DNA of 13,030 nt from Corallococcus llansteffanensis (GTDB lineage: Bacteria; Myxococcota; Myxococcia; Myxococcales; Myxococcaceae). Under the pieces are notes generated by a model. It searched no databases and was not told the origin of the DNA. It worked only from the letters and a program-made list of their open reading frames with translations. A program made the translations under genes and the position numbers. Each line of letters begins with the position of its first letter. The stretch's first letter is position 1. Of the stretch, positions 1 through 13,030 are shown piece after piece. The DNA lies in assembly GCF_003612055.1 (NCBI RefSeq), contig NZ_RAWB01000277.1, positions 1-13,030 of the forward strand, given 5' to 3'.

Positions 1-1
1 G

Positions 2-751
2 CTGTGGCTCACCACGGGCGATGCGCTCCTGTGGCGGCAGACCGGCACGACATCGCCCTGGACGCCGTCCCTGTACCTGCTGGAGGACTTCGCCTCGCCC
101 CAGGTGCAGCTGCGAGCCATCAGCGTGGGCTTCTTTGGATTCTCACCCCTGGGTGGAGGATCCAGCGCCCTGGACTTCCGGGTGGAGTGGCGCACCGCCC
201 ACGAACCCCTGCCCGCGGGCACGCTGCGGCCCGTGAGCCGGGGCGCGACATGCGTGCCGTCCATCCCGGAGGGCTGTCCCTGGACGGACGGCCGGCTCGA
301 AACCGTGGCCCTGTCCAACCCCAAGACAGACCCACGCGTGTACGGCCTCACCGTCACGCTGCCCCAGCCCACGCGCCCGCGCCACGCGGTGGTGCGCGGC
401 CTGCGCCATGCGCACGGCTACGAGGGCAAGGAGTGGCTCGTCCTGGAGGGCAGCCTGGATGGCGAGCACTGGCAGCTCCTCAACCGGACCGTGCTGCGGG
501 ACATGGACTCACGCACCCGGGCCGTGAACGCCGTCCTGCACAACCCCTACGGCGACCTCGCCCCACAGGACTCGCCCTACGGGGATGCCCCCATCCTCCT
601 GGGAGACGAAGAGCCCGTCTTCATCGAGCTGCCCCTGTCCGACGCGGAGCCCGCGCGCTACGTCCGGCTCTCCGTGGAGCTGTTGGACTTCGAAGGCAGT
701 ACATCCCCCGGAGCGCTCATGAAGCTCGCGGAGTTCTCCGTCTTTGAATAG
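2..751 (+). CDS. 3' part (C-terminus) of a larger protein ending in a discoidin / F5-8 type C (galactose-binding-like) domain; 5' end lies outside the window
   Basis: Frame 2 is open from nt 2 (no stop before the first Met at 104) to TAG at 749-751. GC3-rich codons. The C-terminal motifs 'EWLVLEGSLDGEHWQLL' and 'ARYVRLSVELLDFEG' are typical of discoidin domains. The competing frame-1 ORF 4..747 is Arg/Pro/Gly-rich shadow. Confidence 0.6.
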   Translation: MWLTTGDALLWRQTGTTSPWTPSLYLLEDFASPQVQLRAISVGFFGFSPLGGGSSALDFRVEWRTAHEPLPAGTLRPVSRGATCVPSIPEGCPWTDGRLETVALSNPKTDPRVYGLTVTLPQPTRPRHAVVRGLRHAHGYEGKEWLVLEGSLDGEHWQLLNRTVLRDMDSRTRAVNAVLHNPYGDLAPQDSPYGDAPILLGDEEPVFIELPLSDAEPARYVRLSVELLDFEGSTSPGALMKLAEFSVFE

Positions 752-772
752 CGCCGGGCGTTGATGGGTGAC

Positions 773-791
773 GCTGGCAAGCGTTGCCAGC
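773..791 (+). terminator. Perfect 8-bp stem hairpin GCTGGCAA-gcg-TTGCCAGC, 22 nt downstream of the stop at 751; possible terminator or regulator site
   Basis: Read directly from the sequence. No U-tract follows. A near-identical palindrome GGCAAGCATTGCC recurs at 809-821. Confidence 0.3.
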
Positions 792-886
792 AGCTCCCGC
801 CCCCGGACGGCAAGCATTGCCGGGCGCTCCCTGTCAAAACCCCGTGGGCGGGGGGCTTCCGGGCCGGCACGTGGAGTGCACTGCGT

Positions 887-905
887 GTGAACGCAATCCG
901 TTCAC
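887..905 (+). promoter_or_regulatory. 7-bp inverted repeat GTGAACG-caatc-CGTTCAC immediately upstream of the RBS (AGGAG at 910-914) of the gene starting at 924; candidate operator
   Basis: Palindrome seen in the sequence. Position about 20-35 nt upstream of the start codon. Confidence 0.25.
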
Positions 906-923
906 CCCCAGGAGCGCTTCCCC

Positions 924-2729
924 ATGTCACAAAGACTCTCCCTCGGTGCCTTTGGCGCCCTGGCCTCGCTTTGCCTTGCCTCCAGCGCATGGGCCGGCGC
1001 GGTCGAAGACTTCAAGAAGGGCAAGGACGTCCAGCTCACCGCCGTCTCGGCGGTCATGGACGGCGAAATCTACTCCATCGCCGGCTTCCAGATTCCCAAG
1101 GCCGCCGACACGCTCAACATCACCCTCACGGGCGCGGACCTGGGGCTGAACTTCTCCCAGTCCGTCTTCCTCACGGGCGTGCAGAGCGGCAACTCCATCC
1201 TCTGGACGTTCAACCAGACGTTCAATCCCCCCATCGCCGTCGATGGGACGACCGTGGTCAACCACGTCTCCGGGTTGCTCATCGTCAACGCAACCCTGCT
1301 CGCGGGCACCCACCACCCGCTGTGCGGCTTCCAGCCCTGCCTTCGCGACGTGCTGCTCACGCACGCTCCCGGCTCCTGGATCCTCGTGGAGGGAGAGGGC
1401 GCGCTCGGCATCGATTTCTCGCGGCTCGTCATGGTCGACTACTTCCGCGCGCTGGGAGGAATCCCCCAGCCCGGCCTCTCCGCCTTCTACGTCCCGGGCA
1501 CGGCCAAGGTCTGCTCTTCGCCCGTCACGACCTACCTGCCGATGACCGCGTTCCTCACCGGGTTCGCGCCGTCAGGGGGCACGAAGGTCGACTTCGTGAG
1601 CGCCTACCCCAAGGGCCTCAAGGTTCCGCCCAACCTCACCGTCCCCGGCGGTCAATCTACCGCGTCGTTCAAGGCCGCGGTGGCGCCTGACTTCACCGGC
1701 CAGGTGAACGTGGTCGCGTCGTCCGCGGGCGCCATCTACTCCCGCCTGGTGCAGATCTTCCCCCAGGCGGACTGTGACAGCGGCGGCAACCGGAACGACC
1801 CGTTCGACGTGCGGGCCTACGTCCCGGACCTGCTCCTGGGATGCATCAACTGCTCGGAGCTCATCGACCTGGGCATCCGGGGCCAGGGCCTCCTCCGCGT
1901 GCAGGGCCTGGATGTGTACTTCAATGGCAGTCAGCTCCGCCGCCTCTCCAGCGTGTTCGACGTGGTCTCGGTGAGCGCCGTGGACATGACGGACAGCGGG
2001 CTCGTCACCGGCTCGATGGTCGTCCGCGCGGGAGAGGCTCCGGTGGCGTTCAGGGCCAGCCTGGAGGGCGGCCCCACCACCCCGATCGTACTGGGTGCCT
2101 TCACCCCCACCGCCATCACCGCGAGCGGCGTCGTGATTGGCAATCACACCTCACGCACCAGCAGCGTCGCCATGTATCACGATGGCAGGTCGCTGAAGGA
2201 GCTGCCCATCCCCGGCGCCACCCGCAGCCAGGCCCTCGCGGTGAGCGAGGCCGGACACATCGTGGGCACCTACGAGCGGGACGGTGACGTGCGGGCCTTC
2301 CTCTTCACGGAGGGCGTGTTCCGGACGCTTCCCCAGCTTTCGCGCGCCACCACGACGGTCCCCGTGGCGGTCAACAACCGGGGACAGGTGGTCGCCCACT
2401 CCGTGGACGCCACCGGTGCCGTGCTCGCGGTGGCCATCATCGAACCCAATGACACCTTCCACCTCCTCGGCGTGCCCTCCGGCTTCACCGGGCTCACCGC
2501 CACCTCCATCAATGCACGGGGTTGGGTCTCGGCGACCGCCACCTCCCACACCGGGACGAGCGGCTTCCTCTACACCCGCGAGGATGGATGGGTGGATCTC
2601 AACCGCCGGCTCTCTCCGGCCGGCAGCGTGGTGGTGACGGACGCCCTGCGCATCACGGATGCGGATCAGGTGCTGGTGCACGGGACCGCCAACGGCAACC
2701 GCGCGCTCTACCTGCTCACCCTTCCCTGA
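924..2729 (+). CDS. Secreted 601-aa protein with N-terminal signal peptide and C-terminal degenerate ~45-aa repeats resembling the HAF extracellular repeat family
   Basis: ATG at 924 with AGGAG 9 nt upstream. N-terminus 'MSQRLSLGAFGALASLCLASSAWAGA' is a signal peptide with an AWA-G cleavage site. Repeats of the form '…IVGTYERDGDVRAFLFTEGVFRTL…NNRGQVVAHS…' and '…ARGWVSAT…SGFLYTREDGWVDL'. GC3-rich codon usage. Confidence 0.8.
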   Translation: MSQRLSLGAFGALASLCLASSAWAGAVEDFKKGKDVQLTAVSAVMDGEIYSIAGFQIPKAADTLNITLTGADLGLNFSQSVFLTGVQSGNSILWTFNQTFNPPIAVDGTTVVNHVSGLLIVNATLLAGTHHPLCGFQPCLRDVLLTHAPGSWILVEGEGALGIDFSRLVMVDYFRALGGIPQPGLSAFYVPGTAKVCSSPVTTYLPMTAFLTGFAPSGGTKVDFVSAYPKGLKVPPNLTVPGGQSTASFKAAVAPDFTGQVNVVASSAGAIYSRLVQIFPQADCDSGGNRNDPFDVRAYVPDLLLGCINCSELIDLGIRGQGLLRVQGLDVYFNGSQLRRLSSVFDVVSVSAVDMTDSGLVTGSMVVRAGEAPVAFRASLEGGPTTPIVLGAFTPTAITASGVVIGNHTSRTSSVAMYHDGRSLKELPIPGATRSQALAVSEAGHIVGTYERDGDVRAFLFTEGVFRTLPQLSRATTTVPVAVNNRGQVVAHSVDATGAVLAVAIIEPNDTFHLLGVPSGFTGLTATSINARGWVSATATSHTGTSGFLYTREDGWVDLNRRLSPAGSVVVTDALRITDADQVLVHGTANGNRALYLLTLP

Positions 2730-2766
2730 CCCACCTCCCTGCCCACACCCTCAAAGGATTTCCATC

Positions 2767-3519
2767 ATGATGAAGCACAAGAACAAACTCCTGCTCATGG
2801 CGGTCGTGTTCACCCTGTTCCAGGGTTGTGCGAGCTGCCTGCAGGAACCCTGCGTCCCCGGCATCAAGTTCCCGGAGCCCGGGTCCTGTCCCCTCAAGGG
2901 ACATCCCCAGGGCTCGTCCGGAGGAAAGTGCAACAACTTCATCGGCAACTTCGGTTGCGATGATCCGGACCACACGTGTGTCTCCAACACCTGCATTCCT
3001 TGCGGCCAGCCCGGCTCGGTCTGCTGCGAGCATCAGGGGTGCGACGGCATGGCGACGTGCGTGAAGCCCAAGGAGGACCACACCTTTTCCGTCTGCTCCA
3101 ATGAGTGCGTCCAGGTGGGCGACAGCTGCTGCACGAACAACCAGTGCGGCTCCGGCATGGTGTGCAACGCCAACCTCAAGCAATGCGTGCCGGCGAACGA
3201 GCCCACGTGCGGAATGGGCCCCACCCTCTTCGCGCTCGGGGTGATCTCCGACAACACGAAGTGCGGCGACGTGATCTTCATCAAGGAAGCCAGCCTGCAG
3301 GCCGCGAAGCAGTGCGTCCAACCCCAGGTCCAGGCCGCCGGGACGCACTTCGCCCCGGACAACACGCCGCTGCAGGAGTTCACCTTCTGCAACTCCGGCT
3401 CGGGGATCGACCCTTCGGCGACCGTGACCGTGGCGGCGTTCTCCTCAACCGATGCGGCGACGTGCGCCCACAACCTGTGCACCAACTGCGCGAGCACGGC
3501 TCCCGGCCCCTGTCCGTAG
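2767..3519 (+). CDS. Cysteine-rich lipoprotein (~250 aa) with duplicated CC-x3-[GQ]-C-x(1-2)-G-x(2-3)-C modules
   Basis: ATG ATG at 2767 with AAGGA at 2753-2757. 'MMKHKNKLLLMAVVFTLFQGC' contains a lipobox LFQG-C. About 30 Cys residues. Repeated blocks 'GSVCCEHQGCDGMATC' and 'GDSCCTNNQCGSGMVC'. It lies 37 nt after the upstream gene, consistent with an operon. Confidence 0.75.
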   Translation: MMKHKNKLLLMAVVFTLFQGCASCLQEPCVPGIKFPEPGSCPLKGHPQGSSGGKCNNFIGNFGCDDPDHTCVSNTCIPCGQPGSVCCEHQGCDGMATCVKPKEDHTFSVCSNECVQVGDSCCTNNQCGSGMVCNANLKQCVPANEPTCGMGPTLFALGVISDNTKCGDVIFIKEASLQAAKQCVQPQVQAAGTHFAPDNTPLQEFTFCNSGSGIDPSATVTVAAFSSTDAATCAHNLCTNCASTAPGPCP

Positions 3520-3532
3520 CCGCGGGCCCATG

Positions 3533-3574
3533 AAAAAAGCCCGGTCGGCCCTCTGGGAAAGAGGGCCGCCGGGC
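3533..3574 (-). terminator. Intrinsic terminator for the minus-strand gene 3604..5247: 14-bp stem with a 1-nt bulge and a 7-nt loop, followed on the minus strand by a U6 tract; also lies 3' of the plus-strand gene
   Basis: aaaaaa-GCCCGGtCGGCCCTC-tgggaaa-GAGGGCCGCCGGGC read from the sequence. The A6 on the plus strand gives U6 after the stem on the minus-strand transcript. Confidence 0.7.
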
Positions 3575-3603
3575 GAGCTCACAAGCGTGGGAGGCGGGGA
3601 CGA

Positions 3604-5247
3604 CTACCCGTTGCGGCGCACCATCGCGACGTCGTAGCGGCGGTCCGTCACGTAGCCCTCGGCGGCCTTGCCGGGGCGGGTCATCGCGCCCGTCTTCTCA
3701 TCCACGTAGAAGCGGTTGTTGGGGTTGGTGTCCTTGCCCTTGCTCGCGTTGGTCGTCCCCGGGTCGTGGAACGTGTAGTAGGTGCGGCCCTTGTCGTCGA
3801 CGCCGCGGCCCGTGATGGTCACGAAGTGGTCCGTGAGCCCGTCCGCGTTGTACTTCGCGTCCTTGTGGCTGACGCCCACCACCACCGGCTTGCCGGCGTC
3901 CAGCTGCTGGTCGATGTACTTGCGACCCTCGGCGGCCTTCTTGGAGTTCACCGAGAGCTGGCCGGTGCTGTTCTCGCTGGTGCCCACCTGGATGCGGCTG
4001 TCCGGGCCCGTCACGTTCGCGCCCACCTTGCCGGCCATCGCCTTCGCGGCGTCGAAGCACGCGGTCTTGCTGGGGGTGAAGCCGTGGCCGCCCTCGAACT
4101 GGCTGTAGTACGGCACCTTCACGTGCACCGCGGGGCCCGACTTGGACGGCGCCACCGTCTGCGTGTCGTTGAGGTCCACTTCCGTGGTGGGCTTCTGCGA
4201 GTTGGCGCCCGTCGTGTTGCTCGTGGCCGGCTTCGTGTTGCTCGTGGCCGGCTTCGTGCCGCCCGTCGTGTTGCTCGTGGCCGGCTTCGTGTCTGCCGTC
4301 GTGGTACCCGGGGTCGTGGTGCCGCCCGCCTTCTCCTTCTTGAGCAGCGCGAGCGCGTCCTTCACCTCGGACTTGAAGCGGTTGGCCACGCCCTCCTGCA
4401 CGCTCTTGGAGTTGCTGGAGAAGTGCACCAGCGTGCCGCTGGAGTTGGTGCGGCCGCGCTCGGCGTAGATGTCCTTGATGAGCTGCTCGTCGCTCACCTT
4501 GGAGGGGTCGCGGCCGGCCAGCGCCTTCTTGAAGATGTCATCCGCCGCGCCCGGCCCGTGCTGCACGGACGTGGACCAGGCCACGTCGCGCAGCGCCGCG
4601 GACCGCGTGTCCAGGTCGATGCCCGTCGCCTTCTTGATGTTGGCGGCGCCCACGTCGTAGTGCGTGGCCTTGATGTAGTCGTGCTGCGCCTTGTCGAAGC
4701 CCTTGGGGTCCTTCGCCGCGAGCTGCTTCCACGCGTTGGAGAACGCCTCCGAGCCCGGCTTGCTGCCCGACAGCGCCGCGTGGAACTCCGGGTTGCTCTT
4801 CTTCAGCGAGTTCACGAACGACTGCGCGGACCCGTTCGCCGACGCGAACTGGTAGGAGCCGTACGACACGCCGCCGTGGTCGCCCTTGCCCGTGGACACC
4901 GTGCCGGGGCCACGCGCCTCGTACTTGCGGCTCAGCCCGCCCAGCTCGCCGCCACCCGCCGGAGCCGTCGTCTGCTTCGTGGTGTCCGTCGCCTTCGTCC
5001 CGCCCGTGTTGGACGTCGCCGGCTTGGTGGTGTTGGTGGCCGGCTTCGTGCTCGTGCCACGCGGGGGCTTCGTGTCGAAGCCGTCCGGGATGCGCAGCGA
5101 CTGGCCCGCGCGGATGCGGTCCGGGTCCTTGATGTTGTTGGCCTTGGCCAGCGCCGCCACCGTCGTGTCGTTGCGCTTCGCGATCGCGGAGAGGGTGTCG
5201 CCGGAACGGACGCGGAGGCTGGAGACGGTCATCGAAGGCACCTTCAT
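3604..5247 (-). CDS. Multidomain putative peptidoglycan hydrolase: N-terminal LysM domain, Thr-rich linkers, a central lysozyme-like (GH108-like?) domain, and a C-terminal papain-fold Cys peptidase (Peptidase_C39_2 / YvpB-like). No signal peptide
   Basis: LysM: 'SLRVRSGDTLSAIAKRNDTTVAALAKANNIKDPDRIRAGQSLRIP'. Central domain: 'GDHGGVSYGSYQF…FDKAQHDYIKATHYD', resembling the D-x-GG-x-T-x-YG muramidase motif. C-terminal 'VPYYSQ…KTACFDAA…DHFVTITG' carries a catalytic Cys/His pair. An alternative start at the in-frame ATG 5232 (Met6) has an AAGGTG SD-like sequence 7 nt upstream. The antisense ORF 3766..5295 is shadow. Confidence 0.85.
   Translation of the reverse strand: MKVPSMTVSSLRVRSGDTLSAIAKRNDTTVAALAKANNIKDPDRIRAGQSLRIPDGFDTKPPRGTSTKPATNTTKPATSNTGGTKATDTTKQTTAPAGGGELGGLSRKYEARGPGTVSTGKGDHGGVSYGSYQFASANGSAQSFVNSLKKSNPEFHAALSGSKPGSEAFSNAWKQLAAKDPKGFDKAQHDYIKATHYDVGAANIKKATGIDLDTRSAALRDVAWSTSVQHGPGAADDIFKKALAGRDPSKVSDEQLIKDIYAERGRTNSSGTLVHFSSNSKSVQEGVANRFKSEVKDALALLKKEKAGGTTTPGTTTADTKPATSNTTGGTKPATSNTKPATSNTTGANSQKPTTEVDLNDTQTVAPSKSGPAVHVKVPYYSQFEGGHGFTPSKTACFDAAKAMAGKVGANVTGPDSRIQVGTSENSTGQLSVNSKKAAEGRKYIDQQLDAGKPVVVGVSHKDAKYNADGLTDHFVTITGRGVDDKGRTYYTFHDPGTTNASKGKDTNPNNRFYVDEKTGAMTRPGKAAEGYVTDRRYDVAMVRRNG
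4213..4290 (-). repeat. In-frame tandem 21-nt repeat (three copies of CGTGTTGCTCGTGGCCGGCTT at 4213, 4234 and 4267) encoding KPATSNT linker repeats on the minus strand. A second Thr/Pro-rich linker region lies at about 4960-5060
   Basis: Perfect 21-mer copies read directly from the sequence. Translation of the minus strand gives TKPATSNTKPATSNT. Confidence 0.65.
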
Positions 5248-5424
5248 GTCGGGCCGCGAACAACGGGGGTCGCGGACGTGATTGGATTGCCGTGATTATC
5301 GACAGGCAATGAAGGCAGTTTCTCATTCTCAGTCACAATCGTGTCAAACCAGTGATTCCAGTAACTTCAGTTTCGGCGGATCAATCCGCTGAGACTAGAG
5401 AACCCGCCCAGGAGGCCCAATCGG
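5248..5424. promoter_or_regulatory. Divergent intergenic promoter region, locally AT-richer, between the LysM-peptidase gene (minus) and the secreted protein gene (plus). Contains GTGATT x3, the inverted repeat ATTGCC-n13-GGCAAT and the palindrome CGGATCAATCCG (5377-5388)
   Basis: Drop in GC compared with the flanks. Divergent gene starts on both sides. AGGAGG RBS at 5410-5415 for the plus-strand gene. Confidence 0.4.
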
Positions 5425-6456
5425 ATGTCCAGGATCCAACCGGATTTCAAAATTTTGCCATTGCTGTTCGCCCTTGGCCTCACGGGCGCGGTCCCGAATG
5501 CCTCGGCTCAGGGGCCTGGAGGACTCACGGGCGTCTATTCCAAGGATGGCGGGGCGCTGGCCATCGTCGAGGGGAGCAACGAGACGCTGATCCACTACTC
5601 GGCCGGCTTTCCGCAGGGCGACAGCGTGGGCACGTGCGACTGCGCGCTGGTCGTTCAACGCAAGACGTCAACGCGCTGGACGCTGAACGTGGCCGGGGAG
5701 AAGGAGCCCTGGACGCTGCGCGTCGAACCCAAGCAGCTCGTCCTGGAGACGAAGGCGCCCACCTGCTGCGGCGCGGGCTACCCGGGCAAGGACACCTTCA
5801 CGCGGGGCACGCCCCAGCCGCTGACCGTCTGCAAGGTGAAGGCATCCAAGGCGGGCTTCTTCGCGTCGGATGAAGCCAATACGCCGCGCAAGACGTTCGT
5901 GGTGTCTGGCGACGCGGTGGAGGCCTACCTGGACCCCGTGGAGCCGGACCTCATCCCCGCGCGCTTCCAGGGGCCCCAGAAGGCCACGGCGGGGCTGCTC
6001 AAGCGCGCGGACCTGGACTGCGAGGCGGCCAAGGCCCCCACGGCGAGCAAGGCGCCCGTGGCGGCCGACAAGCTCCAGCCCTTCGCGGGCACATGGGTGG
6101 AATTGACGCGCAAGGGCAAGGGCTTCGTCATCCTCAAGCCCTGCTCCGCCAAGAACCGCAGCTTCACCGTCAAGCCCGCGACGGGCGAGGTGGAGGTGCA
6201 GCTGGGACAGGAGGCGACGACACTGAAGGCGACGTCGCTGGAGCCCGGCAAGGGCGCCGGGGCCTGGGTGCTGGGGCTCACGTCCACGGAGGGCAAGCCG
6301 GAGGCGCTCCAGTGGAAGACGGCCGACGCGGCGAAGGGCACCGTGTCGGTGACGAGCCCGGACCTCTTCTCCCAGAGCCATGACTACGTGCGTCAGGAGA
6401 AGCAGTCCGCGTTCCCGGTGAAGCAGGAGACCGGCTGCGACGAGTACGAGCAGTAG
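5425..6456 (+). CDS. Secreted hypothetical protein (343 aa) with signal peptide
   Basis: ATG at 5425 with AGGAGG 9 nt upstream. N-terminus 'MSRIQPDFKILPLLFALGLTGAVPNASAQG' is a signal peptide. GC3-rich coding frame. The antisense ORFs 5668..6381 and 5925..6341 are shadows. Confidence 0.75.
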   Translation: MSRIQPDFKILPLLFALGLTGAVPNASAQGPGGLTGVYSKDGGALAIVEGSNETLIHYSAGFPQGDSVGTCDCALVVQRKTSTRWTLNVAGEKEPWTLRVEPKQLVLETKAPTCCGAGYPGKDTFTRGTPQPLTVCKVKASKAGFFASDEANTPRKTFVVSGDAVEAYLDPVEPDLIPARFQGPQKATAGLLKRADLDCEAAKAPTASKAPVAADKLQPFAGTWVELTRKGKGFVILKPCSAKNRSFTVKPATGEVEVQLGQEATTLKATSLEPGKGAGAWVLGLTSTEGKPEALQWKTADAAKGTVSVTSPDLFSQSHDYVRQEKQSAFPVKQETGCDEYEQ

Positions 6457-6460
6457 CGCG

Positions 6461-7372
6461 TCACGGGTCCGGGCGCTCCGCCCCCGGGTTCAGCCGGGGC
6501 GCGCCTCCCGGGCCCAGCAGGCCCTGCATGGCGTCGAAGAGGTTGAGGTTGGAGCCGCTGGGGAGGAAGACGACCTTGTCCAGGCCTCCCACGACGGCGG
6601 CCTGGGCCTGGGCCGCGACGGCCTTCACGAAGTTCTCCCCGCCCCCCAGCGCCTCCACGCGCTGGCGGAACTGCGAGGCCTCCACCTCGGCGAGCCGGGA
6701 CTGGCGCTCCACCTCCAGGTCGTTCAGGCGCTGCTGCCGCTCCAGGGCCATCTGGGTCGTCAGGCGCTCGCGCTCCAGCTCCGCCTCGGAGCGGATGCGG
6801 GAGGCGCGGGCGTCGGACTCGGCGCGGGCCAGGGCCTCCTCGCTCTCCACGCGGGCCTTCTCCAGCGACACGACGGTGACGGACTCGTCGGGCACGTAGC
6901 GACCGGGCCCGCGCACCAGCCACTCGTCGCCGGCCTCGCGGCGGCGGGGCGCGTCCGGGGCGCGTGCGTCCGTGAAGGCGGTGAGCGCGCGCAGGCGCAG
7001 CGCTTCCGACACGCCCAGCACGTACTCCGGGACGATGTCGCCCTCCAGCTCCTCGCCCGGATACAGCGGGAACACCTTGGGGCCGACGCGGACCTCGCGG
7101 TCCCCCACCGCCAGCCGGGCCTGGCCGAAGTCGTCCAGCACCACCTGGCCGTCCACGCGCACCACGGGGTTGCGCACCACGCACCAGTTGCCGGCGCCCA
7201 CCTCCACCATCCGCTCCTTGGCGACGAGCGTGAGGTGCGCCTCCAGGGTCAACACCCGGGGCCCCACCTCCATCAGCACCACCCCCCGGTTGGCGTCCTC
7301 GATGTATGCGTATTCGCGATTCTTCAGGGAGATGCGCTGGATGGCTTCGGTGCTGGGGAGGGCGGACGGCAC
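6461..7372 (-). CDS. Major vault protein (MVP)-like protein, 303 aa: MVP repeats 1 to ~3 fused through a short coiled coil to an MVP cap-helix/cap-ring-like C-terminus; repeats 4-9 and the shoulder domain are absent
   Basis: GTG start at 7372 (first in-frame start; no SD). The N-terminus aligns with human MVP repeats 1-3 and the C-terminus with the MVP cap-helix end (details in findings). The other-frame ORF 6393..7379 is Gly/Pro/Arg-rich shadow. GC about 75 %. Confidence 0.8.
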   Translation of the reverse strand: MPSALPSTEAIQRISLKNREYAYIEDANRGVVLMEVGPRVLTLEAHLTLVAKERMVEVGAGNWCVVRNPVVRVDGQVVLDDFGQARLAVGDREVRVGPKVFPLYPGEELEGDIVPEYVLGVSEALRLRALTAFTDARAPDAPRRREAGDEWLVRGPGRYVPDESVTVVSLEKARVESEEALARAESDARASRIRSEAELERERLTTQMALERQQRLNDLEVERQSRLAEVEASQFRQRVEALGGGENFVKAVAAQAQAAVVGGLDKVVFLPSGSNLNLFDAMQGLLGPGGAPRLNPGAERPDP

Positions 7373-7467
7373 GGGGCACCTGCTCGGGGCGGAGGGTTCA
7401 CCCGCGAGTCATTGCCAGCCGCGTGCCGCGCCCTGCCCGTCCTGAAACGATCCTGCGATGTTCCGAC

Positions 7468-7519
7468 CTGGAACAGCCGCCCGCTCCATTCCGGAGCGGG
7501 CGGCGGTCCAGACTGGCGC
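7468..7519. repeat. 52-nt imperfect hairpin repeat, copy A (CTGGAACAGCCGCCCGCTCCATTCCGGAGCGGGCGGCGGTCCAGACTGGCGC), immediately 3' of the minus-strand gene ending at 7525; terminator-like (11-bp stem, 5-nt loop), no U-tract
   Basis: 50/52 identical to copy B at 8824-8875. Core CCGCCCGCTCC/GGAGCGGGCGG stem plus outer CTGGA/TCCAG arms, read from the sequence. Confidence 0.6.
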
Positions 7520-7524
7520 GCCTT

Positions 7525-8700
7525 TCAGTCCTTGTGGATCCACACGAGCATGCGCGTCGCGTCATAGAGCACGAACCTGGCGTCCCGAAGGAAGGAATTG
7601 CCAACCTGCGCCGCCGGGGTGGTCCAGGTAGCAATCCCCCCACACTTGAGGCTTGCCGGCGTCGGTGTCTTGATGAACAGGTGGGCATCTCCATAGGAGC
7701 GCACGGGCTGATCGTCGGTGCCCATGAACTCCAGCCGCGCGCCTTCGGGAAGGAGAAACTCCTGGACCGTGTCGTTGGCCCCTCCGCACGCACTCAGCTG
7801 GCTGGGCGGCGTCCCGACCGGAACGGTTTTGACTCCCGCCTTGGTCAACATCTCAAGCAACGCCTTGTTGCCATAGAGGCTGTGCCTGACGATTGAATCA
7901 TCAAGCCCTGAGTCCAGCTGGCCTATGAAACGCGCCCCGCCCATCCGCAATGGAACGGTAGGCACGTTCGGCACAAGCTCACTGGCACCCGCGCCTGAAC
8001 GGAGCCGGGTCATGTTGAACAACCCCGAATCGTTGATCGCGAAGTAGCCGCGGGTTGTGAGCGGCCGCAACCCGGCACTCTTGAGCTGGTCGTCATCGCA
8101 CAAGGATCCAGAGCGATTCCGGAAGACAAGCGAGCGCTCATAGTCGAGCGCGAAGGTATTGAGCACCAGGAAGTCAGCCCCCACGATACCCGCCTGTCGC
8201 CCGACTGTCGGGTCTACTTTGTTGCCCGAGTGGTCAGCTTGTGCAAGGCACACGTTTCCCCATCCACCAAAGAAATCAAAGTTCCCAAAGCGGCAAAACG
8301 TGCCCGCGACTCCTGACTGGCAGAGGGTTTGATCTCGAGCGCAGTTATCAACAATCACCTCCGGCTCGTTCTGTCCGAACGCTTGGTGCGCCCGGTCAAT
8401 CGTGCTGTACGTCGAACCGAAGTCCAGCAGGAACCTACCCGTGAGCGGAGCGCCCGAGGGTGCCGACAACTTGACCTCAACAAATGGCCATTGGCCAGAC
8501 ACCCAGAGAGGTCTGCGCTCCCCCAGACACGCATCCAAGCTGGAGAACGGCCGACTGCTGGCGACTTCTGGCTGAGCAGGGGCGGCTTGTTCAGGTTTGT
8601 GGGCACAGGCAGGCAACAGCCAAAGCGCCAGCACTGCCGCGCCCAGGCGCCAAAGCAGCCCAGCGTCGAGACTGGCATACCCCTGTTTTTCGGCAGACAT
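7525..8700 (-). CDS. Lipoprotein (391 aa). Two D-x-G motifs ('LLDFGSTYS' and 'IGQLDSGLDDS') about 170 residues apart suggest a pepsin-like (A1) aspartic peptidase fold; function tentative
   Basis: ATG at 8700. 'LALWLLPAC' lipobox. Clearly lower GC (about 55-63 % per 60-nt line) than the neighbouring genes (about 70-78 %), with a less GC-biased third position. The spacing of the two Asp motifs resembles pepsin D32/D215. Confidence 0.7.
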   Translation of the reverse strand: MSAEKQGYASLDAGLLWRLGAAVLALWLLPACAHKPEQAAPAQPEVASSRPFSSLDACLGERRPLWVSGQWPFVEVKLSAPSGAPLTGRFLLDFGSTYSTIDRAHQAFGQNEPEVIVDNCARDQTLCQSGVAGTFCRFGNFDFFGGWGNVCLAQADHSGNKVDPTVGRQAGIVGADFLVLNTFALDYERSLVFRNRSGSLCDDDQLKSAGLRPLTTRGYFAINDSGLFNMTRLRSGAGASELVPNVPTVPLRMGGARFIGQLDSGLDDSIVRHSLYGNKALLEMLTKAGVKTVPVGTPPSQLSACGGANDTVQEFLLPEGARLEFMGTDDQPVRSYGDAHLFIKTPTPASLKCGGIATWTTPAAQVGNSFLRDARFVLYDATRMLVWIHKD

Positions 8701-8823
8701 GTACAGTCATCCCCCAGATGGTGATTGCGGCCAACACCCTAACACGAACACCGCGGCGGGGACGCTTGGTGCCCTCCCCGGTGAAGTGCAGTTCCTGGAA
8801 GCGGGCCCAGGAAGCCAGGGATG

Positions 8824-8875
8824 CTGGAACAGCCGCCCGCTCCATTCCGGCACGGGCGGCGGTCCAGACTGGCGC
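8824..8875. repeat. 52-nt hairpin repeat, copy B (…CATTCCGGCACGGGCGG…), immediately 3' of the GDSL lipase gene ending at 8886 and about 120 nt 5' of the low-GC lipoprotein gene
   Basis: Direct repeat of copy A in the same orientation. The two mismatches sit in the loop-proximal stem, leaving a 7-bp core stem plus outer arms. Confidence 0.6.
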
Positions 8876-8885
8876 ACCGGGGTGA

Positions 8886-9779
8886 CTACTGAGCGCTCCA
8901 CGCCTCCACGGTCCACTCGTCGGCGGAGAGGCCGGCGCTGAAGCCGAGGGCGTCGGAGACGAGGTCATGGCCGTAGTCCGCGAAGATGCGGTGGCTGTAG
9001 CTCGTGGGGTGGATCTCATCCCAGAACAGGTACGTGTCCGGGTTGACAGCCTTGCCCTTGCTGGTGCCGGTGACGTTCGTCAGGCCGTACGCGGACGGCG
9101 ACGCGATGATGGCGTTGAACTGGTTGTAGGCGTTCATCCCGATGAAGGTGACGGACGGGAAGTCCTGGCGCAGCTTCGTCAGCGATTGCGCCCACAGGGT
9201 GTTGAACTGGCTGGTGGGAGGAGCGAGCACGGTGGTGCCCAGGCCGCCCGGGACGGACAGCGCCGCCGGCGTCTTGTTCAAGGGCGGCATGTTCACCCAC
9301 AGGATGCGCTTCGCGCCCGCCGCGACGAGCTTGCGGATCTGCCCATTGATGTTGGAGACGGCCGTCGTCGCCGCGGCCTTGATGCCAGCCGAGTCGAACG
9401 GGTTCGCCTGGGCCTTGTAGTTGATGTCATTGCCCCCGCCCCAGAGGACATACAGCGCCGTGGAGGACGCCGTCGGGTGGGCCGCCAGGTAGCTGTTCAC
9501 CTGGCTCGTCATCCCGCTGGTGACGGCGCCGCCCCGGGCATAGTTCGTGCCGCCGCTGTCGGACGCCGTCAGGGGCAGGCCCAGCTGCGTAGCGAGCTGC
9601 TTCACCCAGGTGCCGGCAATCTGGCTGGAGGGATTCGTCGTCGGACCGCTGGTGGCGATGCCGTTGTTGCCGTTGTCACTCAGGCTGTCGCCAAACACGA
9701 CGATGCTGCTCTGCGCGCCAGCGTGGAACGGGAGGAGGACGGCCAAGATGGCCGCGAGCAACAGGAAGGGATGCTTCAT
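8886..9779 (-). CDS. Secreted GDSL/SGNH-family lipase/esterase (copy 1)
   Basis: ATG at 9779 (GAGGAG RBS upstream). An in-frame GTG at 9794 is the track start, but the ATG matches the paralog alignment. 'MKHPFLLLAAILAVLLPFHAGAQS' is a signal peptide. SGNH blocks: 'VVFGDSLSDNGN', 'YARGGA', 'WGGGNDI', 'DEIHPT'. The start ATG overlaps the upstream gene's stop TGA as ATGA. Confidence 0.85.
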   Translation of the reverse strand: MKHPFLLLAAILAVLLPFHAGAQSSIVVFGDSLSDNGNNGIATSGPTTNPSSQIAGTWVKQLATQLGLPLTASDSGGTNYARGGAVTSGMTSQVNSYLAAHPTASSTALYVLWGGGNDINYKAQANPFDSAGIKAAATTAVSNINGQIRKLVAAGAKRILWVNMPPLNKTPAALSVPGGLGTTVLAPPTSQFNTLWAQSLTKLRQDFPSVTFIGMNAYNQFNAIIASPSAYGLTNVTGTSKGKAVNPDTYLFWDEIHPTSYSHRIFADYGHDLVSDALGFSAGLSADEWTVEAWSAQ

Positions 9780-10672
9780 GGCTGCGCGCTCCACTCCTCA
9801 ACGGTCCACTCGTCGGCGGTGAAGCCGGCGCTGAAACCGAAGGCATCGGAGACGAGGTCGTACGCGTAGTTCGCGAAGATGCGGTGGCTGTAGCTCGTCG
9901 GGTGGATTTCATCCCAGAACAGGTACTTGTCCGGGTTGACCGCCTTGCCCTTGCAGGTGCCGGTGACGTTCGTCAGCCCATACGCGGACGGGGCCGCGAT
10001 GATGGCGTTGAACTTGTTGTAGGCGTTCATCCCGATGAACGTGACGGACGGGAACTCGCCGCGCAGCTTCGTCAGGGACTGGGACCAGAGCGTGTTGAAC
10101 TGGGAGCTGGGCGGCGAAAGCACGCTGCTGCCCAGGCCGAACGGGATGGACAGCGCCGCGGGCGTCTTGTGGAGCGGCGGCATGTTCACCCACAGGACGC
10201 GCTTCGCGCCCGCGGCGACGAGCTTGCGGATCTGCCCTTCGATGTTGGAGACGGCCTTGGTCGCCACGGCCTTGATGCCAGCCGAATCGAACGGGTTGTC
10301 CATCGCCTTGTGATGGATGTCGTTGCCGCCGCCCCAGAGGACATACAGCGCCGTGGACGACGCCGTCGGGTGGGCGGTGAGGTAGGCGTTGACCTGGTTC
10401 GTCATGTCGGCCGTGACCGAGCCGCCCTGCGCGTAGTTCGTGCCTCCCTCGTCAGAGGCCACGAGCGGCAGGTCCAGCTGGTCCGCGAGCTGTTTCACCC
10501 AGGGACCGGAGATCTGGCTGGAGGGATTCGTCGTCGGACCGCTCGTCGCGGTGCTGTACTTGCCGTTGTCACTCAGGCTGTCGCCAAACGCGACGATACT
10601 GCTCTGCGCGCCAGCGTGGAACGGGAGGAGGACCGCCAGGGCGGCCGCGAACGACAGGAAGGGATGTTTCAA
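9776..10672 (-). CDS. Secreted GDSL/SGNH-family lipase/esterase (copy 2, tandem paralog). Start uncertain: TTG at 10672 (aligned with the copy 1 start) or GTG at 10720
   Basis: Protein about 80 % identical to copy 1, with the same SGNH blocks ('VAFGDSLSDNGK', 'WGGGNDI', 'DEIHPT'). 'LKHPFLSFAAALAVLLPFHAGAQS' aligns with the copy 1 signal peptide. GGAG lies 8 nt upstream of the TTG. No in-frame ATG near the N-terminus. Confidence 0.8.
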   Translation of the reverse strand: MKHPFLSFAAALAVLLPFHAGAQSSIVAFGDSLSDNGKYSTATSGPTTNPSSQISGPWVKQLADQLDLPLVASDEGGTNYAQGGSVTADMTNQVNAYLTAHPTASSTALYVLWGGGNDIHHKAMDNPFDSAGIKAVATKAVSNIEGQIRKLVAAGAKRVLWVNMPPLHKTPAALSIPFGLGSSVLSPPSSQFNTLWSQSLTKLRGEFPSVTFIGMNAYNKFNAIIAAPSAYGLTNVTGTCKGKAVNPDKYLFWDEIHPTSYSHRIFANYAYDLVSDAFGFSAGFTADEWTVEEWSAQP

Positions 10673-10784
10673 GGAGGGCTCCGAGAGGGGGGAACACAGG
10701 CGTCTGCCGCACTGTGTCACCGATCTCGGAGCTTTTCCAGGTTTCTCTACGCTTCCATGTTTTATTCCGGATGTTTCAGCGGGC
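10673..10784 (-). promoter_or_regulatory. Putative promoter/leader of the tandem GDSL operon (AT-richer 'ttccatgttttattccggatgtttcagc') and 3' region of the upstream minus-strand gene
   Basis: Local AT enrichment between the stop at 10785 and the GDSL start. Inference only. Confidence 0.25.
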
Positions 10785-11474
10785 TCAGCCCCGCGCGGCG
10801 CGGGCGTCGCGGCCCTTGGCGCGGGCGGCCTTGGAGAGCAGGTCGGAGCCCTTCTCCTCGCCCTTCATCCACGCCTTCATCGCGGGGACGACCTGCTTGC
10901 TCCACGCGCGGCCGCCGCGCACGGCGAGGAAGGCCGTCACCAGCGCGTCCACCAGGGCGGAGAGCTGTTCGGTCAGCTCCAGGCGCTCGGTGAGCTGATC
11001 ATCCTCCTCCTCGGTCATCAGGGCGGGCAGCTTGGCGGCGCGGATGTCCAGGAACTCCGCATCCAGGGTGAGCTCGAACTCGCGCTCGCCGTGGGAGATG
11101 CGCAGCCGCGCCTGGGACACAAGCAGCCCCCGGTCCAGCGAGTGCCGCACGTTCTCCGAGTACGGAGCCAGCGTGCCGCGCGCGCTCAACTCCGTGACGT
11201 CACCGGCCACGCCGCGCAGCACCACCTTGCCCAGGTAGAGCGCCGTGACGGACGCGCCGTCGTGCTCCACCAGCGGGTCGCCGGACTCCGTGCGCCACAG
11301 CAGCCACGTCAGGAACTCGCGCCCCAGGTAGGCCCGGCCGCGCAGGAGCTGTTCGCGCGCCTTGCCCTGTTCGACCTCGGCCTCGTCCTTGACCTCTTCG
11401 GTCGAGCCACCATCCACGCCCACGTCGCCCCGGGCGAACGCCGCCTCGATCCGCGCCTGCTCACCCTTCGCCAT
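10785..11474 (-). CDS. Protein resembling the C-terminal half of recombination-associated protein RdgC (229 aa), with an acidic N-terminal extension
   Basis: ATG at 11474 with GGAGGACAGCC upstream, a strong SD. 'LGREFLTWLLWRTESGDPL…GKVVLRG…LRISHGEREFELTLDAEFLDIRAAKLP…DDQLTERLELTEQLSALVDALVTAFL' parallels E. coli RdgC 'LTLTEWVRSGSAPQGF…GGVIRAKK…[26 protein letters not shown]…[30 protein letters not shown]' (E. coli sequence recalled from memory). Overlaps the upstream ORF by 14 nt in a different frame. Confidence 0.6.
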   Translation of the reverse strand: MAKGEQARIEAAFARGDVGVDGGSTEEVKDEAEVEQGKAREQLLRGRAYLGREFLTWLLWRTESGDPLVEHDGASVTALYLGKVVLRGVAGDVTELSARGTLAPYSENVRHSLDRGLLVSQARLRISHGEREFELTLDAEFLDIRAAKLPALMTEEEDDQLTERLELTEQLSALVDALVTAFLAVRGGRAWSKQVVPAMKAWMKGEEKGSDLLSKAARAKGRDARAARG

Positions 11475-12111
11475 GGCTGTCCTCCACCGAAGCCGTCGCC
11501 GGCAGGTCCATTCCGATGAGCTCCGCCGTGGGGCCCAGGGCCTTGTCGTCGATGCCCGCGCGCTGCGCCATCGAGGCGGGCGTGATGCCAATCACCTTCA
11601 CCGCCAGGGCGCCTTCCAGGGCCACGGAGATCTCATCCACCGTCTTGCGGGACGCGGCCCAGATCTGCACCTGCTGCGTCTTCAGGTTCCACGTCACGTC
11701 CAGCACGCTGGTGCGCGGCACGGCCCGCTGCCGGAGCAGCTGCTTCAACTCCGCGCGCTGCTTGTTCTTCTCCGCGCGCGCGGGCGGGCGGCTGTTCTCC
11801 TTGGCGAAGGCGGAGGACCACTTGTCCAGCTCCGCCTTCATCATGGAGGCGGGGACCTTCAGGGTGTCGATGCGGAAGGCGAAGAGGGCGTACTCGCCAT
11901 AGAAGAGGTTGCTGGTGGAGAAGTCGGAGGCCTCCGCGTTCTCCAGCTCCACGAAACCGGCCGCGCGCTCATCTTCGGAGCGGCGGTCGATGGGCTCGAA
12001 CGCATGGGACTTGAGTCCCTTGGTCAGCCAGCGCTTCACGTCGGACGGCGCATCCTTGGCCGGCTCGGTCCGGAAGCGCGAAAAGGTCACGGCACCACGT
12101 AGGACAGGCAT
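11461..12111 (-). CDS. rdgC: RdgC-family (recombination-associated) protein, N-terminal two-thirds (216 aa)
   Basis: ATG at 12111 (no SD). 'MPVLRGAVTFSRFR…LKSHAFEPI…FAFRIDTLKVPASMMKAELDKW…RAEKNKQRAELKQLLRQRAVPRTSVLDVTWNLKTQQVQIWAASRKTVDEISVALEGALAVKVIGITP' aligns with E. coli RdgC residues about 1-180 ('MLWFKNLMVYRL…[23 protein letters not shown]…[69 protein letters not shown]'). The upstream in-frame extension to 12783 is Arg/Pro/Gly-rich non-coding shadow. Confidence 0.6.
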   Translation of the reverse strand: MPVLRGAVTFSRFRTEPAKDAPSDVKRWLTKGLKSHAFEPIDRRSEDERAAGFVELENAEASDFSTSNLFYGEYALFAFRIDTLKVPASMMKAELDKWSSAFAKENSRPPARAEKNKQRAELKQLLRQRAVPRTSVLDVTWNLKTQQVQIWAASRKTVDEISVALEGALAVKVIGITPASMAQRAGIDDKALGPTAELIGMDLPATASVEDSHGEG

Positions 12112-12324
12112 GGGGCGCGGGAGGATGGGGGGCCGGTGCCGTGGCGTCAAGGCACTCGGGGTGGCTGGACGCACTCGCGTGGGAATAGCCGGCGCACCCG
12201 GCCGTTGCGCGCCCGTCGTCCCTGCCCGGTCGCCCTCCGGGCCGTCTTCCCGTGCACGCCCGCCCGTCCCCGCCGGCCGGAAACCATGACACTCCCAGGC
12301 ACGCGACATACGGTGGCCGCCGCC
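12112..12324. promoter_or_regulatory. Divergent intergenic region between the rdgC-like gene (minus) and the PBP4-like gene (plus)
   Basis: Bounded by two divergent start codons. Very GC-rich, with no recognisable SD for either gene. Confidence 0.3.
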
Positions 12325-13030
12325 ATGCGCCGAGCCCTCCTCCCCGTCAGCGTCTCCACCGCCACCGTCCTGCTGTCCGCCTGCGCCCACGTGCCTTCCG
12401 GGCCGGAGGCCCCCCCGGGGAGCACCCTGCCCGGCGTCACCCGCACCCTGCTGGAGACGCTGGAGGCGGACGGCGCGCTCGCCGGCGCGTATGTGGTGGA
12501 CGCGCGCACCGGCGAGCCCCTCTTCAAGCACCGGGAGAACGTGCGGCTCCTGCCCGCGTCCACGATGAAGGTGGTGTCCACCTCCGCGGCGCTGTCCGCG
12601 TTGGGGGCGGACTTCCGCTTCGTGACGCCGGTGTCGCTGGAGGGTTCGCAGGTGGGCGGCCTGTTCCTGGGCGACATCGTGGCGCAGGCCTCCGGCGACC
12701 CGTCCCTGGGCTCGTGGCGCTTCCCGGAGACGGCGCTCGCCTGCGACCGCATCGCGGAGGCGTTCCAGGCGCGCGGCATCCACCAGTGGCGCGGCAACGT
12801 GCGCATCGCCGGCACCGACGGCGTGGACGGCCTCATGGGGCCGGGCTGGGCCTGGGATGACGCCGCCTATGCCTACAGCGCGGCGCCCACCCCGTTCGTC
12901 TTCCGCGAGAACGTGGTGGACCTGGCCCTGGCCCGCGCCCCCGGCTCCACCTGCGCGGACGCGCCCGCCGTCCAGTGGACCCCCACCTTCGCCACGCTGT
13001 CCGCCGTGGTGCGCGTGGACGTCAACGCGG
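12325..13030 (+). CDS. dacB: D-alanyl-D-alanine carboxypeptidase/endopeptidase, PBP4 (peptidase S13) family lipoprotein; 3' end lies outside the window
   Basis: 'MRRALLPVSVSTATVLLSAC' is a lipoprotein signal peptide with an LSAC lipobox. 'LLPASTMKVVSTSAALSALG' contains the SxxK active-site motif in the PBP4-typical context (E. coli DacB 'LPASTQK'). The frame is open to the window end. An alternative in-frame ATG lies at 12286. ORFs 12252..12860(+) and 12147..12836(-) are shadows. Confidence 0.7.
   Translation, partial: MRRALLPVSVSTATVLLSACAHVPSGPEAPPGSTLPGVTRTLLETLEADGALAGAYVVDARTGEPLFKHRENVRLLPASTMKVVSTSAALSALGADFRFVTPVSLEGSQVGGLFLGDIVAQASGDPSLGSWRFPETALACDRIAEAFQARGIHQWRGNVRIAGTDGVDGLMGPGWAWDDAAYAYSAAPTPFVFRENVVDLALARAPGSTCADAPAVQWTPTFATLSAVVRVDVNA

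Follow-up and report, generated by a model that had tools for sequence, protein, structure and literature searches.

A recently acquired gene of Corallococcus llansteffanensis for a probable lipoprotein with a bilobal, pepsin-like fold

The gene and its product

A stretch of 13,030 nucleotides from Corallococcus llansteffanensis (RefSeq assembly GCF_003612055.1, contig NZ_RAWB01000277.1, positions 1 to 13,030), called the window below, carries on its minus strand at 7525-8700 an uninterrupted open reading frame (ORF) of 391 codons. Its 391-amino-acid product is probably a lipoprotein and has a bilobal fold of the pepsin-like kind (clan AA); it can best be seen as a fusion of two diverged lobes, each retropepsin-like, that take on the pepsin architecture. 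The gene itself entered the C. llansteffanensis lineage recently, by horizontal transfer. A preliminary description of the window had marked it as a horizontally acquired lipoprotein gene and, tentatively, as that of a bacterial aspartic protease of the pepsin family A1.

The guanine-plus-cytosine content (GC) of the ORF is 0.612 and that of its third codon positions (GC3) is 0.714, against 0.643-0.749 and 0.864-0.978 (mean 0.922, standard deviation 0.036), respectively, in 11 neighbouring genes; its GC3 thus stands at z = -5.8. Codon use differs as well, with CTT at 0.20 versus 0.03 in the neighbours, TTG at 0.20 versus 0.04 and AGT at 0.18 versus 0.02. This comparison with the neighbouring genes leaves the target as an outlier and agrees with the low GC and the weaker GC3 bias reported there, but the range of 68-78% given for every other gene was overstated, because other genes go down to 64%. 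Other dips below 0.60 occur in the window, in the 300-nucleotide windows 2701-3000 and 5251-5550 (GC 0.57-0.60). The GC3 contrast is the robust, unambiguous signal. Low GC is not inherent to the protein family, since the median difference between gene and flank is +0.01 in 80 other genomes.

All parts of the product are encoded on the minus strand. Residues 1-32 (8605-8700) read as a signal peptide that ends in a lipobox-like L-L-P-A-C at 28-32, with Cys32 as the putative lipidated residue; at the aligned position homologs have canonical lipoboxes such as ALVAC, LSAC and GIAC, and 40 of 131 homologs fit the strict lipobox pattern PROSITE PS51257 and 60 a relaxed one. A low-complexity Pro/Ala/Gln linker follows at residues 33-52 (8545-8604), which is variable in length and D/A/P/S-rich in homologs, has a predicted local distance difference test score (pLDDT) below 50 at residues 33-49 in the structural model described below, and is probably a flexible tether. 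The N lobe, a retropepsin-like half recognized from the match of the family profile to the PDB and from its beta-rich secondary structure, spans residues ~53-200 (8101-8544). It contains the active-site-type motif FLLDFGSTYSTID (residues 90-102, 8395-8433) with D93, a beta-hairpin at residues 135-154 (8239-8298; strands E135-138 and E150-154 in the model) with a conserved F-D-F-F-G-x-W-G, and the psi-loop motif G-I-V-G-A-D-F-L at 8167-8190 (family consensus G-I-I-G-T-D-F-L), identified by conservation and by alignment with ASPRV1. The second retropepsin-like half, the C lobe, was recognized from profile matches to HIV-1 protease, spans residues ~243-391 (7528-7974), and contains the active-site motif IGQLDSGLDDSIV (residues 259-271, 7888-7926) with D263 and, from conservation, the psi-loop motif A-Q-V-G-N-S-F-L at 7588-7611 (consensus A-Q-[LIV]-G-A-S-F). 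The psi-loop triplets are I172-V173-G174 in the N lobe, which agrees with the hydrophobic-hydrophobic-Gly motif of family A1, and Q365-V366-G367 in the C lobe, where Gln is conserved at the first position. Both D-x-G motifs of the preliminary description are found where it had placed them, D93 and D263 lying 170 residues apart, and the first is D-F-G-S, as it had noted, in place of the canonical D-T/S-G.

Eight cysteines are present in the mature query, four cysteines are at least 88% conserved in the family, and both counts fit an exported protein. The product is probably secreted and anchored by a lipid, with ~360 residues in its mature form. Upstream of the gene, the region at 8701-8823 (minus strand) was brought in together with it; a Shine-Dalgarno-like GGGGGA is located there 9 nucleotides before the ATG, no match to the sigma-70 consensus was found in this region, and it presumably holds the gene's own promoter.

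RefSeq and GenBank annotate at this place a shorter coding sequence, D7V93_24285, a 'hypothetical protein' of 219 amino acids at 7525-8184 on the minus strand, which starts from a GTG at V173 and begins MGADFL. This protein (P0001), the only identical one in the databases, agrees with the ORF at 100% identity across 56% of the length of the latter. If it were the real product, it would be a single retropepsin-like lobe in need of homodimerisation, and apart from the annotation itself the distribution of GC3, which is 0.77 in the C half of the ORF and 0.64 in the N half, speaks in its favour. It is nevertheless extremely improbable, because the frame stays open for 172 codons further upstream, these codons align residue-for-residue with the N lobe, the Cys58 region and the signal peptides of the homologs, and a start at V173 would split the N-lobe psi loop and leave a protein with conserved cysteines without an export signal. 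The full 391-amino-acid ORF is the real gene, since the alignment with homologs extends across its N-terminal part. The annotated call is truncated and lacks both the signal peptide and all of the N lobe; the gene caller was probably misled by the N half, where GC3 is very low.

The protein family and its place among aspartic proteases

A k-mer search over 5.8 billion proteins found 18 relatives of the query, the best of which is 42% identical. An exhaustive search with a hidden Markov model (HMM) retrieved 362 clusters, each defined at 50% identity, from 1.84 billion representatives at E <= 1e-3, and 141 of them were below 1e-30. Genome contigs were also scanned with the pattern AQ[LI]D[TS]G[YF][DN]D; the statement that close orthologs are absent rests on the k-mer search, because this pattern misses the GQLDSGLDD of the query itself. 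The scan located members in Sorangium, Polyangium, Labilithrix, Archangium, Zoogloea, Leptothrix, Cyanobium, Tamlana and others, so that the family spreads over Polyangia and other Myxococcota, Zoogloea and other Burkholderiales, Cyanobium, and Flavobacteriaceae. No member bears a Pfam domain or a functional name, and in 80 family loci no operon partner and no conserved gene neighbourhood beyond lineage-specific synteny were found.

Conservation was counted in an alignment of 131 family members. The near-invariant columns are D93, G171, G174, D176, C201, P247, D263, G265, D268, N278, C305, K344, C353-G-G-I, P362, Q365 and W387. D93 is present in 129 of the 131 sequences and D263 in 128 (98%), the N-lobe psi loop keeps G171 in 127, G174 in 124 and D176 in 122, and the C lobe keeps G265 in 125, D268 in 123, and Q365 and G367 of its psi loop in 119 and 110, respectively. 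In the hairpin at 135-154, the conserved residues are F141, F143, F144, G145 and W147. Of the 44 columns with the highest conservation, the query keeps 40, exactly the family median, and it is therefore an intact, non-degenerate member.

The fold was modelled with AlphaFold2 without templates from an alignment of 18 sequences (pLDDT 85, predicted template-modelling score 0.81). Both lobes of the model have the same secondary structure, typical of clan AA: a strand ends in the Asp, and a later strand is followed by a Gly and a short helix, the psi loop of the C lobe consisting of a strand and then a short helix just as that of the N lobe does. Fold-level similarity to the bilobal fold of pepsin, on which the preliminary description had made its proposal depend, was detected with Foldseek, which returned BACE1/2 at E-values of ~1e-6 with probability 1.0 and template-modelling (TM) scores of 0.35-0.39. 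We read these low TM scores as the effect of differing lobe orientation together with insertions.

At the level of sequence, only retropepsin-like families (such as the human immunodeficiency virus (HIV) type 1 protease, ASPRV1/SASPase, APRc and RloA) show significant profile similarity to the family. When the profile of the 131 sequences was compared with the PDB, human ASPRV1 was matched at E = 2.9e-6 over the whole N lobe, with D93 opposite the Asp of the catalytic D-S-G and GiiGTDfL opposite AIIGTDVL; the N-lobe psi loop was also aligned to IIGRDLL of an HIV protease variant, and D93 to the Asp of the D-T-G of HIV protease. The same profile matched a tethered HIV protease at E ~1e-5 (8.5e-6) through stretches in both lobes, with the motifs in register. 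With the profile of 18 sequences, the C-lobe stretch NVPTVPvrIGGvaalAQLDTGfDD was aligned to HIV-1 protease at E = 0.0075, which puts D263 opposite Asp25 and the C-lobe motif opposite LLDTGADD. Three Pfam families gave sub-threshold matches among the 131 members, namely Asp_protease_2 in 32, RVP in 20 and gag-asp_proteas in 14, and when the N lobe was compared with the C lobe by hhalign, the Asp motifs and psi loops of the two came into register at P = 0.01. The family shares hhDxG (h, hydrophobic), the C-lobe D-T-G-x-D-D and the N-lobe I-I-G-T-D-x-L with retropepsins, so that profile homology covers both the loop of the catalytic Asp and the I-I-G-x-D psi loop. Retropepsins, however, consist of a single lobe of ~100-130 residues. 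They are homodimers with a symmetric pair of D-T/S-G (PMC11957051), whereas the target has two different, diverged lobes fused in one chain of 391 amino acids and asymmetric motifs. Single-lobe retropepsins are already known from bacteria, as APRc in Rickettsia and RloA in Pseudomonas (PMC4140852; PMC11957051).

Whether the protein is instead a true member of peptidase family A1, i.e., a shewasin-type bacterial homolog belonging to the lineage of the eukaryotic pepsins, has to be judged from both architecture and sequence. In architecture it resembles pepsin, BACE1, plasmepsins and shewasins A and D, all of which are monomeric and bilobal, with a cleft between the lobes and ~170-180 residues between the two Asp; in each lobe a strand ends in one Asp, and a psi loop comes after it. 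Family A1 is defined by hh-D-[ST]-G-[ST] in both lobes, two psi loops of the hydrophobic-hydrophobic-Gly type and a flap Tyr (PMC2761423), whereas the query reads L-L-D-F-G-S in its N lobe and Q-L-D-S-G-L in its C lobe, so with D-F-G in place of D-T/S-G-S/T in the N lobe, and there is no conserved flap Tyr and no structured prosegment. Similarity to A1 was also undetectable in sequence comparisons. First, the Pfam search proposed in the preliminary description gave no match to PF00026 (Asp) or TAXi, either for the query or for any of the 131 members, at E-values up to 1. Second, no A1 chain is found among the best 60 PDB matches of the family profile, whereas retropepsins are. Third, hhalign of the profile with porcine pepsin, whose sequence was verified to be identical to PDB 1f34_A, gave a probability of 3.7% and a spurious match of 17 columns. 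In addition, shewasins, which are A1 members found in seven species, are cytoplasmic (PMC4814920; PMC2761423) and have no signal peptide (PMC4814920), whereas this family is exported and the target probably lipid-anchored. Membership in A1 is therefore very unlikely; of the earlier pepsin-like assignment, the bilobal architecture and the paired Asp hold and the membership by sequence does not.

Two other pepsin-fold proteins already known from bacteria are relevant to the comparison. PDB 9iy9, an exported 'putative endopeptidase' of Bacteroides fragilis, is 13% identical to the query and could not be linked to it at the sequence level through the query, the family profiles or a family member from Bacteroidota. 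The C-terminal aspartic-protease domain of mycobacterial PE_PGRS proteins (Rv0977, PDB 4ehc) is 14% identical and, unlike the lipoprotein studied here, part of a PE/PGRS fusion. The family is set apart from the known bacterial pepsin-fold proteins and retropepsins by three features: a bilobal build combined with retropepsin-like sequence, export with a lipobox, and the asymmetric pairing of D-[FYW]-G with D-[TS]-G.

The proposed active site and function

On these grounds the protein is probably, if not with great assurance, a membrane-tethered, extracytoplasmic aspartic endopeptidase in which two retropepsin-like lobes are fused and the active site is asymmetric. Each lobe has one near-invariant Asp that terminates a beta-strand: D93, within hh-D-F-G, in the N lobe and D263, within hh-D-S-G, in the C lobe. 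Further along the chain, each Asp is followed by a psi-loop motif 'x-h-Gly' and a short helix. As in pepsin and HIV protease, D93 and D263 would lie opposite one another across the cleft and would activate the water that hydrolyses the peptide bond. The hairpin at 135-154, rich in aromatic residues, is a candidate flap above the active site, a role that we infer from its placement in the model between the Asp motif and the psi loop.

The asymmetry of the proposed site lies in the residue that follows the Asp. In aspartic proteases, the Thr after the catalytic Asp forms the 'fireman's grip', and on the N-lobe side this Thr is replaced by Phe or Tyr. Position 94 is Tyr in 45, Phe in 44, Thr in 16, Leu in 11 and Trp in 9 members (Y/F/W/L in 83%), and position 95 is Gly in 96 and Ala in 29, so that the N-lobe motif is D-[FYWLT]-[GA] across the family. 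The 16 members (12%) with a canonical D-T-G in the N lobe tie the unusual D-F-G to the classical motif. In the C lobe, position 264 is Thr in 91, Ser in 24 and Pro in 13 members and position 266 is F/Y/L; Q-L-D-S-G-L-D-D of the query corresponds there to the family consensus D-T-G-[FY]-D-D, which is close to D-T-G-A-D-D of HIV. Covariation of position 94 with active-site positions of the C lobe gave no clear signal, which is probably confounded by phylogeny. According to a passage of PMC7212762 that cites Strisovsky 2000, the T26A mutant of HIV protease is virtually inactive and retains only residual activity, mainly because its dimerisation fails. A covalently fused enzyme could plausibly tolerate the loss of one side of the grip.

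Several observations weigh against a functional lipid-anchored protease. The N-lobe motif lacks the Thr or Ser that the definition of A1 demands, its Gly is changed to Ala in 22% of the members, and the C lobe of 13 members reads D-P-G; deviations of the latter two kinds also occur among pepsin-fold proteins that are inactive. In the hairpin at 135-154, the 131 members show no conserved Tyr that would correspond to Tyr75. The query by itself has no match in Pfam at E-values up to 10, nor in NCBIfam, PADLOC or PHROGs, and phmmer searches of the PDB with the query and with the member from Tamlana returned nothing meaningful. The structural model was built from only 18 sequences. Finally, L-L-P-A-C, which the preliminary description had taken as a lipobox, is present at residues 28-32 but does not pass the strict PROSITE pattern, having a Pro at -2.

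Some of these points could also suit a pepsin-fold protein that no longer cleaves and whose cleft binds a ligand, with a role in binding or inhibition, as modelled on wheat TAXI-I/IIA, soybean Basic 7S globulin, cockroach Bla g 2 and the pregnancy-associated glycoproteins. Inactive homologs with a pepsin fold usually lose at least one residue of the catalytic motifs or alter it more drastically than is seen here. Unlike TAXI-I/IIA, Basic 7S globulin and Bla g 2, this family keeps both Asp in 98% of its 131 diverse members; D176, D268 and the glycines of both psi loops are kept as well, and the 16 members mentioned above are fully canonical. A non-cleaving protein is the main rival reading; it is unlikely, but by a much smaller measure than membership in A1, and the reading as an active endopeptidase is preferred.

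As to what such an endopeptidase might act on, the surrounding locus is rich in secreted hydrolases, with GDSL lipases and a LysM/VgrG3-like, muramidase-type protein, a setting that in general terms fits myxobacterial predation. It gives no clue to a substrate, because the gene is an insertion without conserved partners.

Insertion of the gene into a variable locus

The low-GC stretch coincides with an inserted foreign segment of 1301 nucleotides at 7523-8823, which consists of 123 nucleotides upstream of the ORF, the ORF and 2 nucleotides past its stop, and has a GC of 0.614 against 0.687 in the rest of the window. This segment is bracketed by a direct repeat of 55 nucleotides, absent from the preliminary description, whose copies are identical at 52 of 55 positions, and each copy, on the minus strand, folds into a hairpin with a GC stem of 12 base pairs. 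Copy A (8824-8878; -32 kcal/mol) stands directly after the stop of the GDSL lipase gene at 8886-9794, in the position of a native terminator-like hairpin. Copy B (7468-7522; -39.8 kcal/mol, z -3.8), with a perfect stem, is located 2 nucleotides after the stop of the inserted gene and is the duplicated copy.

Orthologous regions were reached through orthologs of the adjacent lipase and revealed empty sites in six relatives with flanks ~80-94% identical (also put at 88-94%): a Logan assembly (L082; flanks ~94% identical), Corallococcus sp. BB11-1 (L083), sp. ZKHCc1 1396 and a second assembly (L086 and L087), C. praedator (L088) and C. sicarius (L089). These share the peptidase S13 gene, RdgC, the gene for a 229-amino-acid protein and one or two lipases, and then have a single hairpin ~12 nucleotides past the stop of the last lipase, with the next gene within 100-160 nucleotides; tblastn found no match to the target protein at any of the six loci. 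The left flank of copy A matches the lipase side of the relatives, and the right flank of copy B matches the native side of the major vault protein (MVP) gene and continues into homology with L083. Since these two flanks are the two sides of the relatives' hairpin, the 1301 nucleotides are foreign DNA that was inserted, and the 55-nucleotide hairpin was duplicated. Each copy is only 1-2 substitutions away from the inferred ancestral hairpin, which indicates that both derive from the resident hairpin and that the event is recent.

The same repeats would also allow the opposite history: the locus would have had the gene from the start, the relatives would have lost it when the two repeats recombined, and the composition of the gene would have a cause other than foreign origin. 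Direct repeats of 55 nucleotides are able to mediate precise deletion, and the region is plastic, the number of lipase copies and the MVP-like gene varying between species. However, all six relatives lack the gene and have one hairpin, which would require several independent precise deletions, the GC3 and codon usage are far beyond the local range, family members elsewhere match the GC of their hosts, and no homolog above 42% identity exists among the 5.8 billion proteins searched. An ancestral gene is therefore scarcely credible, and the horizontal acquisition proposed in the preliminary description is borne out by the empty sites together with the GC3 contrast.

The low-GC segment was integrated at the terminator-like hairpin downstream of the lipase gene with duplication of the hairpin. 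If a circular molecule bearing the same hairpin had recombined with the chromosome by one crossover, exactly the observed structure would result; another option is that the hairpin was cut at its base in a staggered manner and the break repaired by fill-in. The arrangement resembles integron cassettes and their attC sites in that a single promoter-poor ORF lies between imperfect hairpin repeats of ~55 nucleotides, as expected from a single crossover of a circular cassette with a resident hairpin. Unlike attC, the repeat has no R''/R' core sites, and the hairpin is conserved in single copy behind the core lipase gene in the six relatives. An attC site was rejected because the repeat ends in GTTCCAG and not GTTRRRY, has no RYYYAAC, and no integrase was seen in the window. 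A dispersed element of the repetitive extragenic palindromic type was likewise rejected, since two patterns of the hairpin had 0 matches in metagenome contigs and each Corallococcus locus has one copy. Pfam detected no integrase or transposase domain in the ten window ORFs scanned (six of the ten had no match at all), and scans of the window found neither tRNA genes nor Rfam families.

No donor can be named: a neighbour-joining tree sets the query beside P0002, a protein from a Joint Genome Institute (JGI) metagenome contig, but the two are 42% identical and joined by long branches. The gene for P0002 also has a lower GC than its flanks (0.59 versus 0.68). It belongs, as the query's nearest relative, to a small set of members that lie 7-10 GC points under the flanks of their hosts, including L085 6001-7212 (a JGI metagenome contig), L002 8001-9023 (Polyangium sp. 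y55x31) and L079. Part of the family may move among high-GC hosts from an unsampled source of lower GC.

The remaining genes of the window were ordered from GC3, Pfam and comparison with the relatives. On the plus strand there are a partial gene ending at 751, a HAF-repeat protein (924-2729), two unknown proteins (2659-3519 and 5425-6456) and, running off the contig end, a peptidase S13 gene (PBP4-like, with a signal peptide) from ~12289 to 13030. The minus strand has a protein with LysM and a VgrG3-like C-terminal domain (3604-5247), a truncated MVP-like gene of 303 amino acids (6461-7372), the tandem GDSL lipases (8886-9794 and 9776-10720), the conserved 229-amino-acid protein (10785-11474) and RdgC (11461-12111). 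An ORF of 229 amino acids with high GC3 at 12147-12836 on the minus strand was rejected as spurious, being antisense to the peptidase S13 gene, and is an instance of how long ORFs mislead at 70% GC. The LysM/VgrG3-like gene contains 21-nucleotide tandem repeats at 4192-4313 and 5005-5051, whose unit, when the reverse strand is translated by eye, gives approximately K-P-A-T-S-N-T, a linker repeat rich in Pro and Thr.

Variation between species is seen on both sides of the insertion. Corallococcus species have a bacterial homolog of the eukaryotic MVP of 758-760 amino acids, with Vault repeats and an MVP shoulder domain, which is found at 7071-9353 in L083, 8064-10346 in L086 and 8058-10334 in L088; it has 371 amino acids in C. 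sicarius (L089, 8929-10044) and is absent from L082. The copy in the window has an internal deletion of ~1.3 kb; its junction is placed near 6849-6866 by an overlap of 18 nucleotides between the two blast segments. The tandem duplication of the GDSL/SGNH lipase has a period of 893 nucleotides and 90% identity over the first 300 nucleotides (repeat D1, 8889-9188 and 9782-10081), one lipase being present in L082, L083 and L086 and two in the window, L084, L088 and L089. In C. carmarthensis (L084), a second, independent low-GC insertion at 3969-5869 (0.603 versus 0.676) lies in the neighbouring intergenic region and contains a PLA2G12-like phospholipase gene; a diverged copy of the hairpin with 9 mismatches in 49 positions stands at its edge (5808-5856), and a direct repeat of ~20 nucleotides, GCCGCCCGGGGCTG.G.CGC, at both junctions. 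This suggests that the locus is a hot spot that captures foreign single genes for secreted enzymes with target duplications.

A more far-reaching picture, which is speculative and on balance improbable as a whole, would be that of a natural 'fused retropepsin' that arose by an independent duplication and fusion of a bacterial retropepsin-like gene or survives as an early branch of the pepsin event, that is active with an asymmetric centre of D-F/Y-G and D-T/S-G and dispenses with half of the fireman's grip, and that came as a single-gene cassette through recombination at a terminator hairpin, Campbell-type or attC-like, as did perhaps the low-GC phospholipase gene of C. carmarthensis.

For the biology of C. 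llansteffanensis, the locus is a clean, datable gain of a single gene within the secreted-hydrolase cluster of a predatory myxobacterium, and the duplication of the 55-nucleotide hairpin is unusual. For the family, at least 360 clusters have no Pfam, NCBIfam or functional annotation, and their recognition as a bilobal, protease-like family of clan AA would correct hundreds of 'hypothetical protein' calls and could justify a new Pfam or MEROPS entry. Pepsins are thought to have arisen when the gene of an ancestor that worked as a retropepsin-like homodimer was duplicated and fused (PMC2761423; PMC4814920), and since both lobes still match retropepsin profiles, this model becomes directly testable in a bacterial family. 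The near-invariant pair of Asp together with a one-sided D-[FYW]-G offers a natural experiment on the need for the fireman's grip in a covalently linked aspartic protease.

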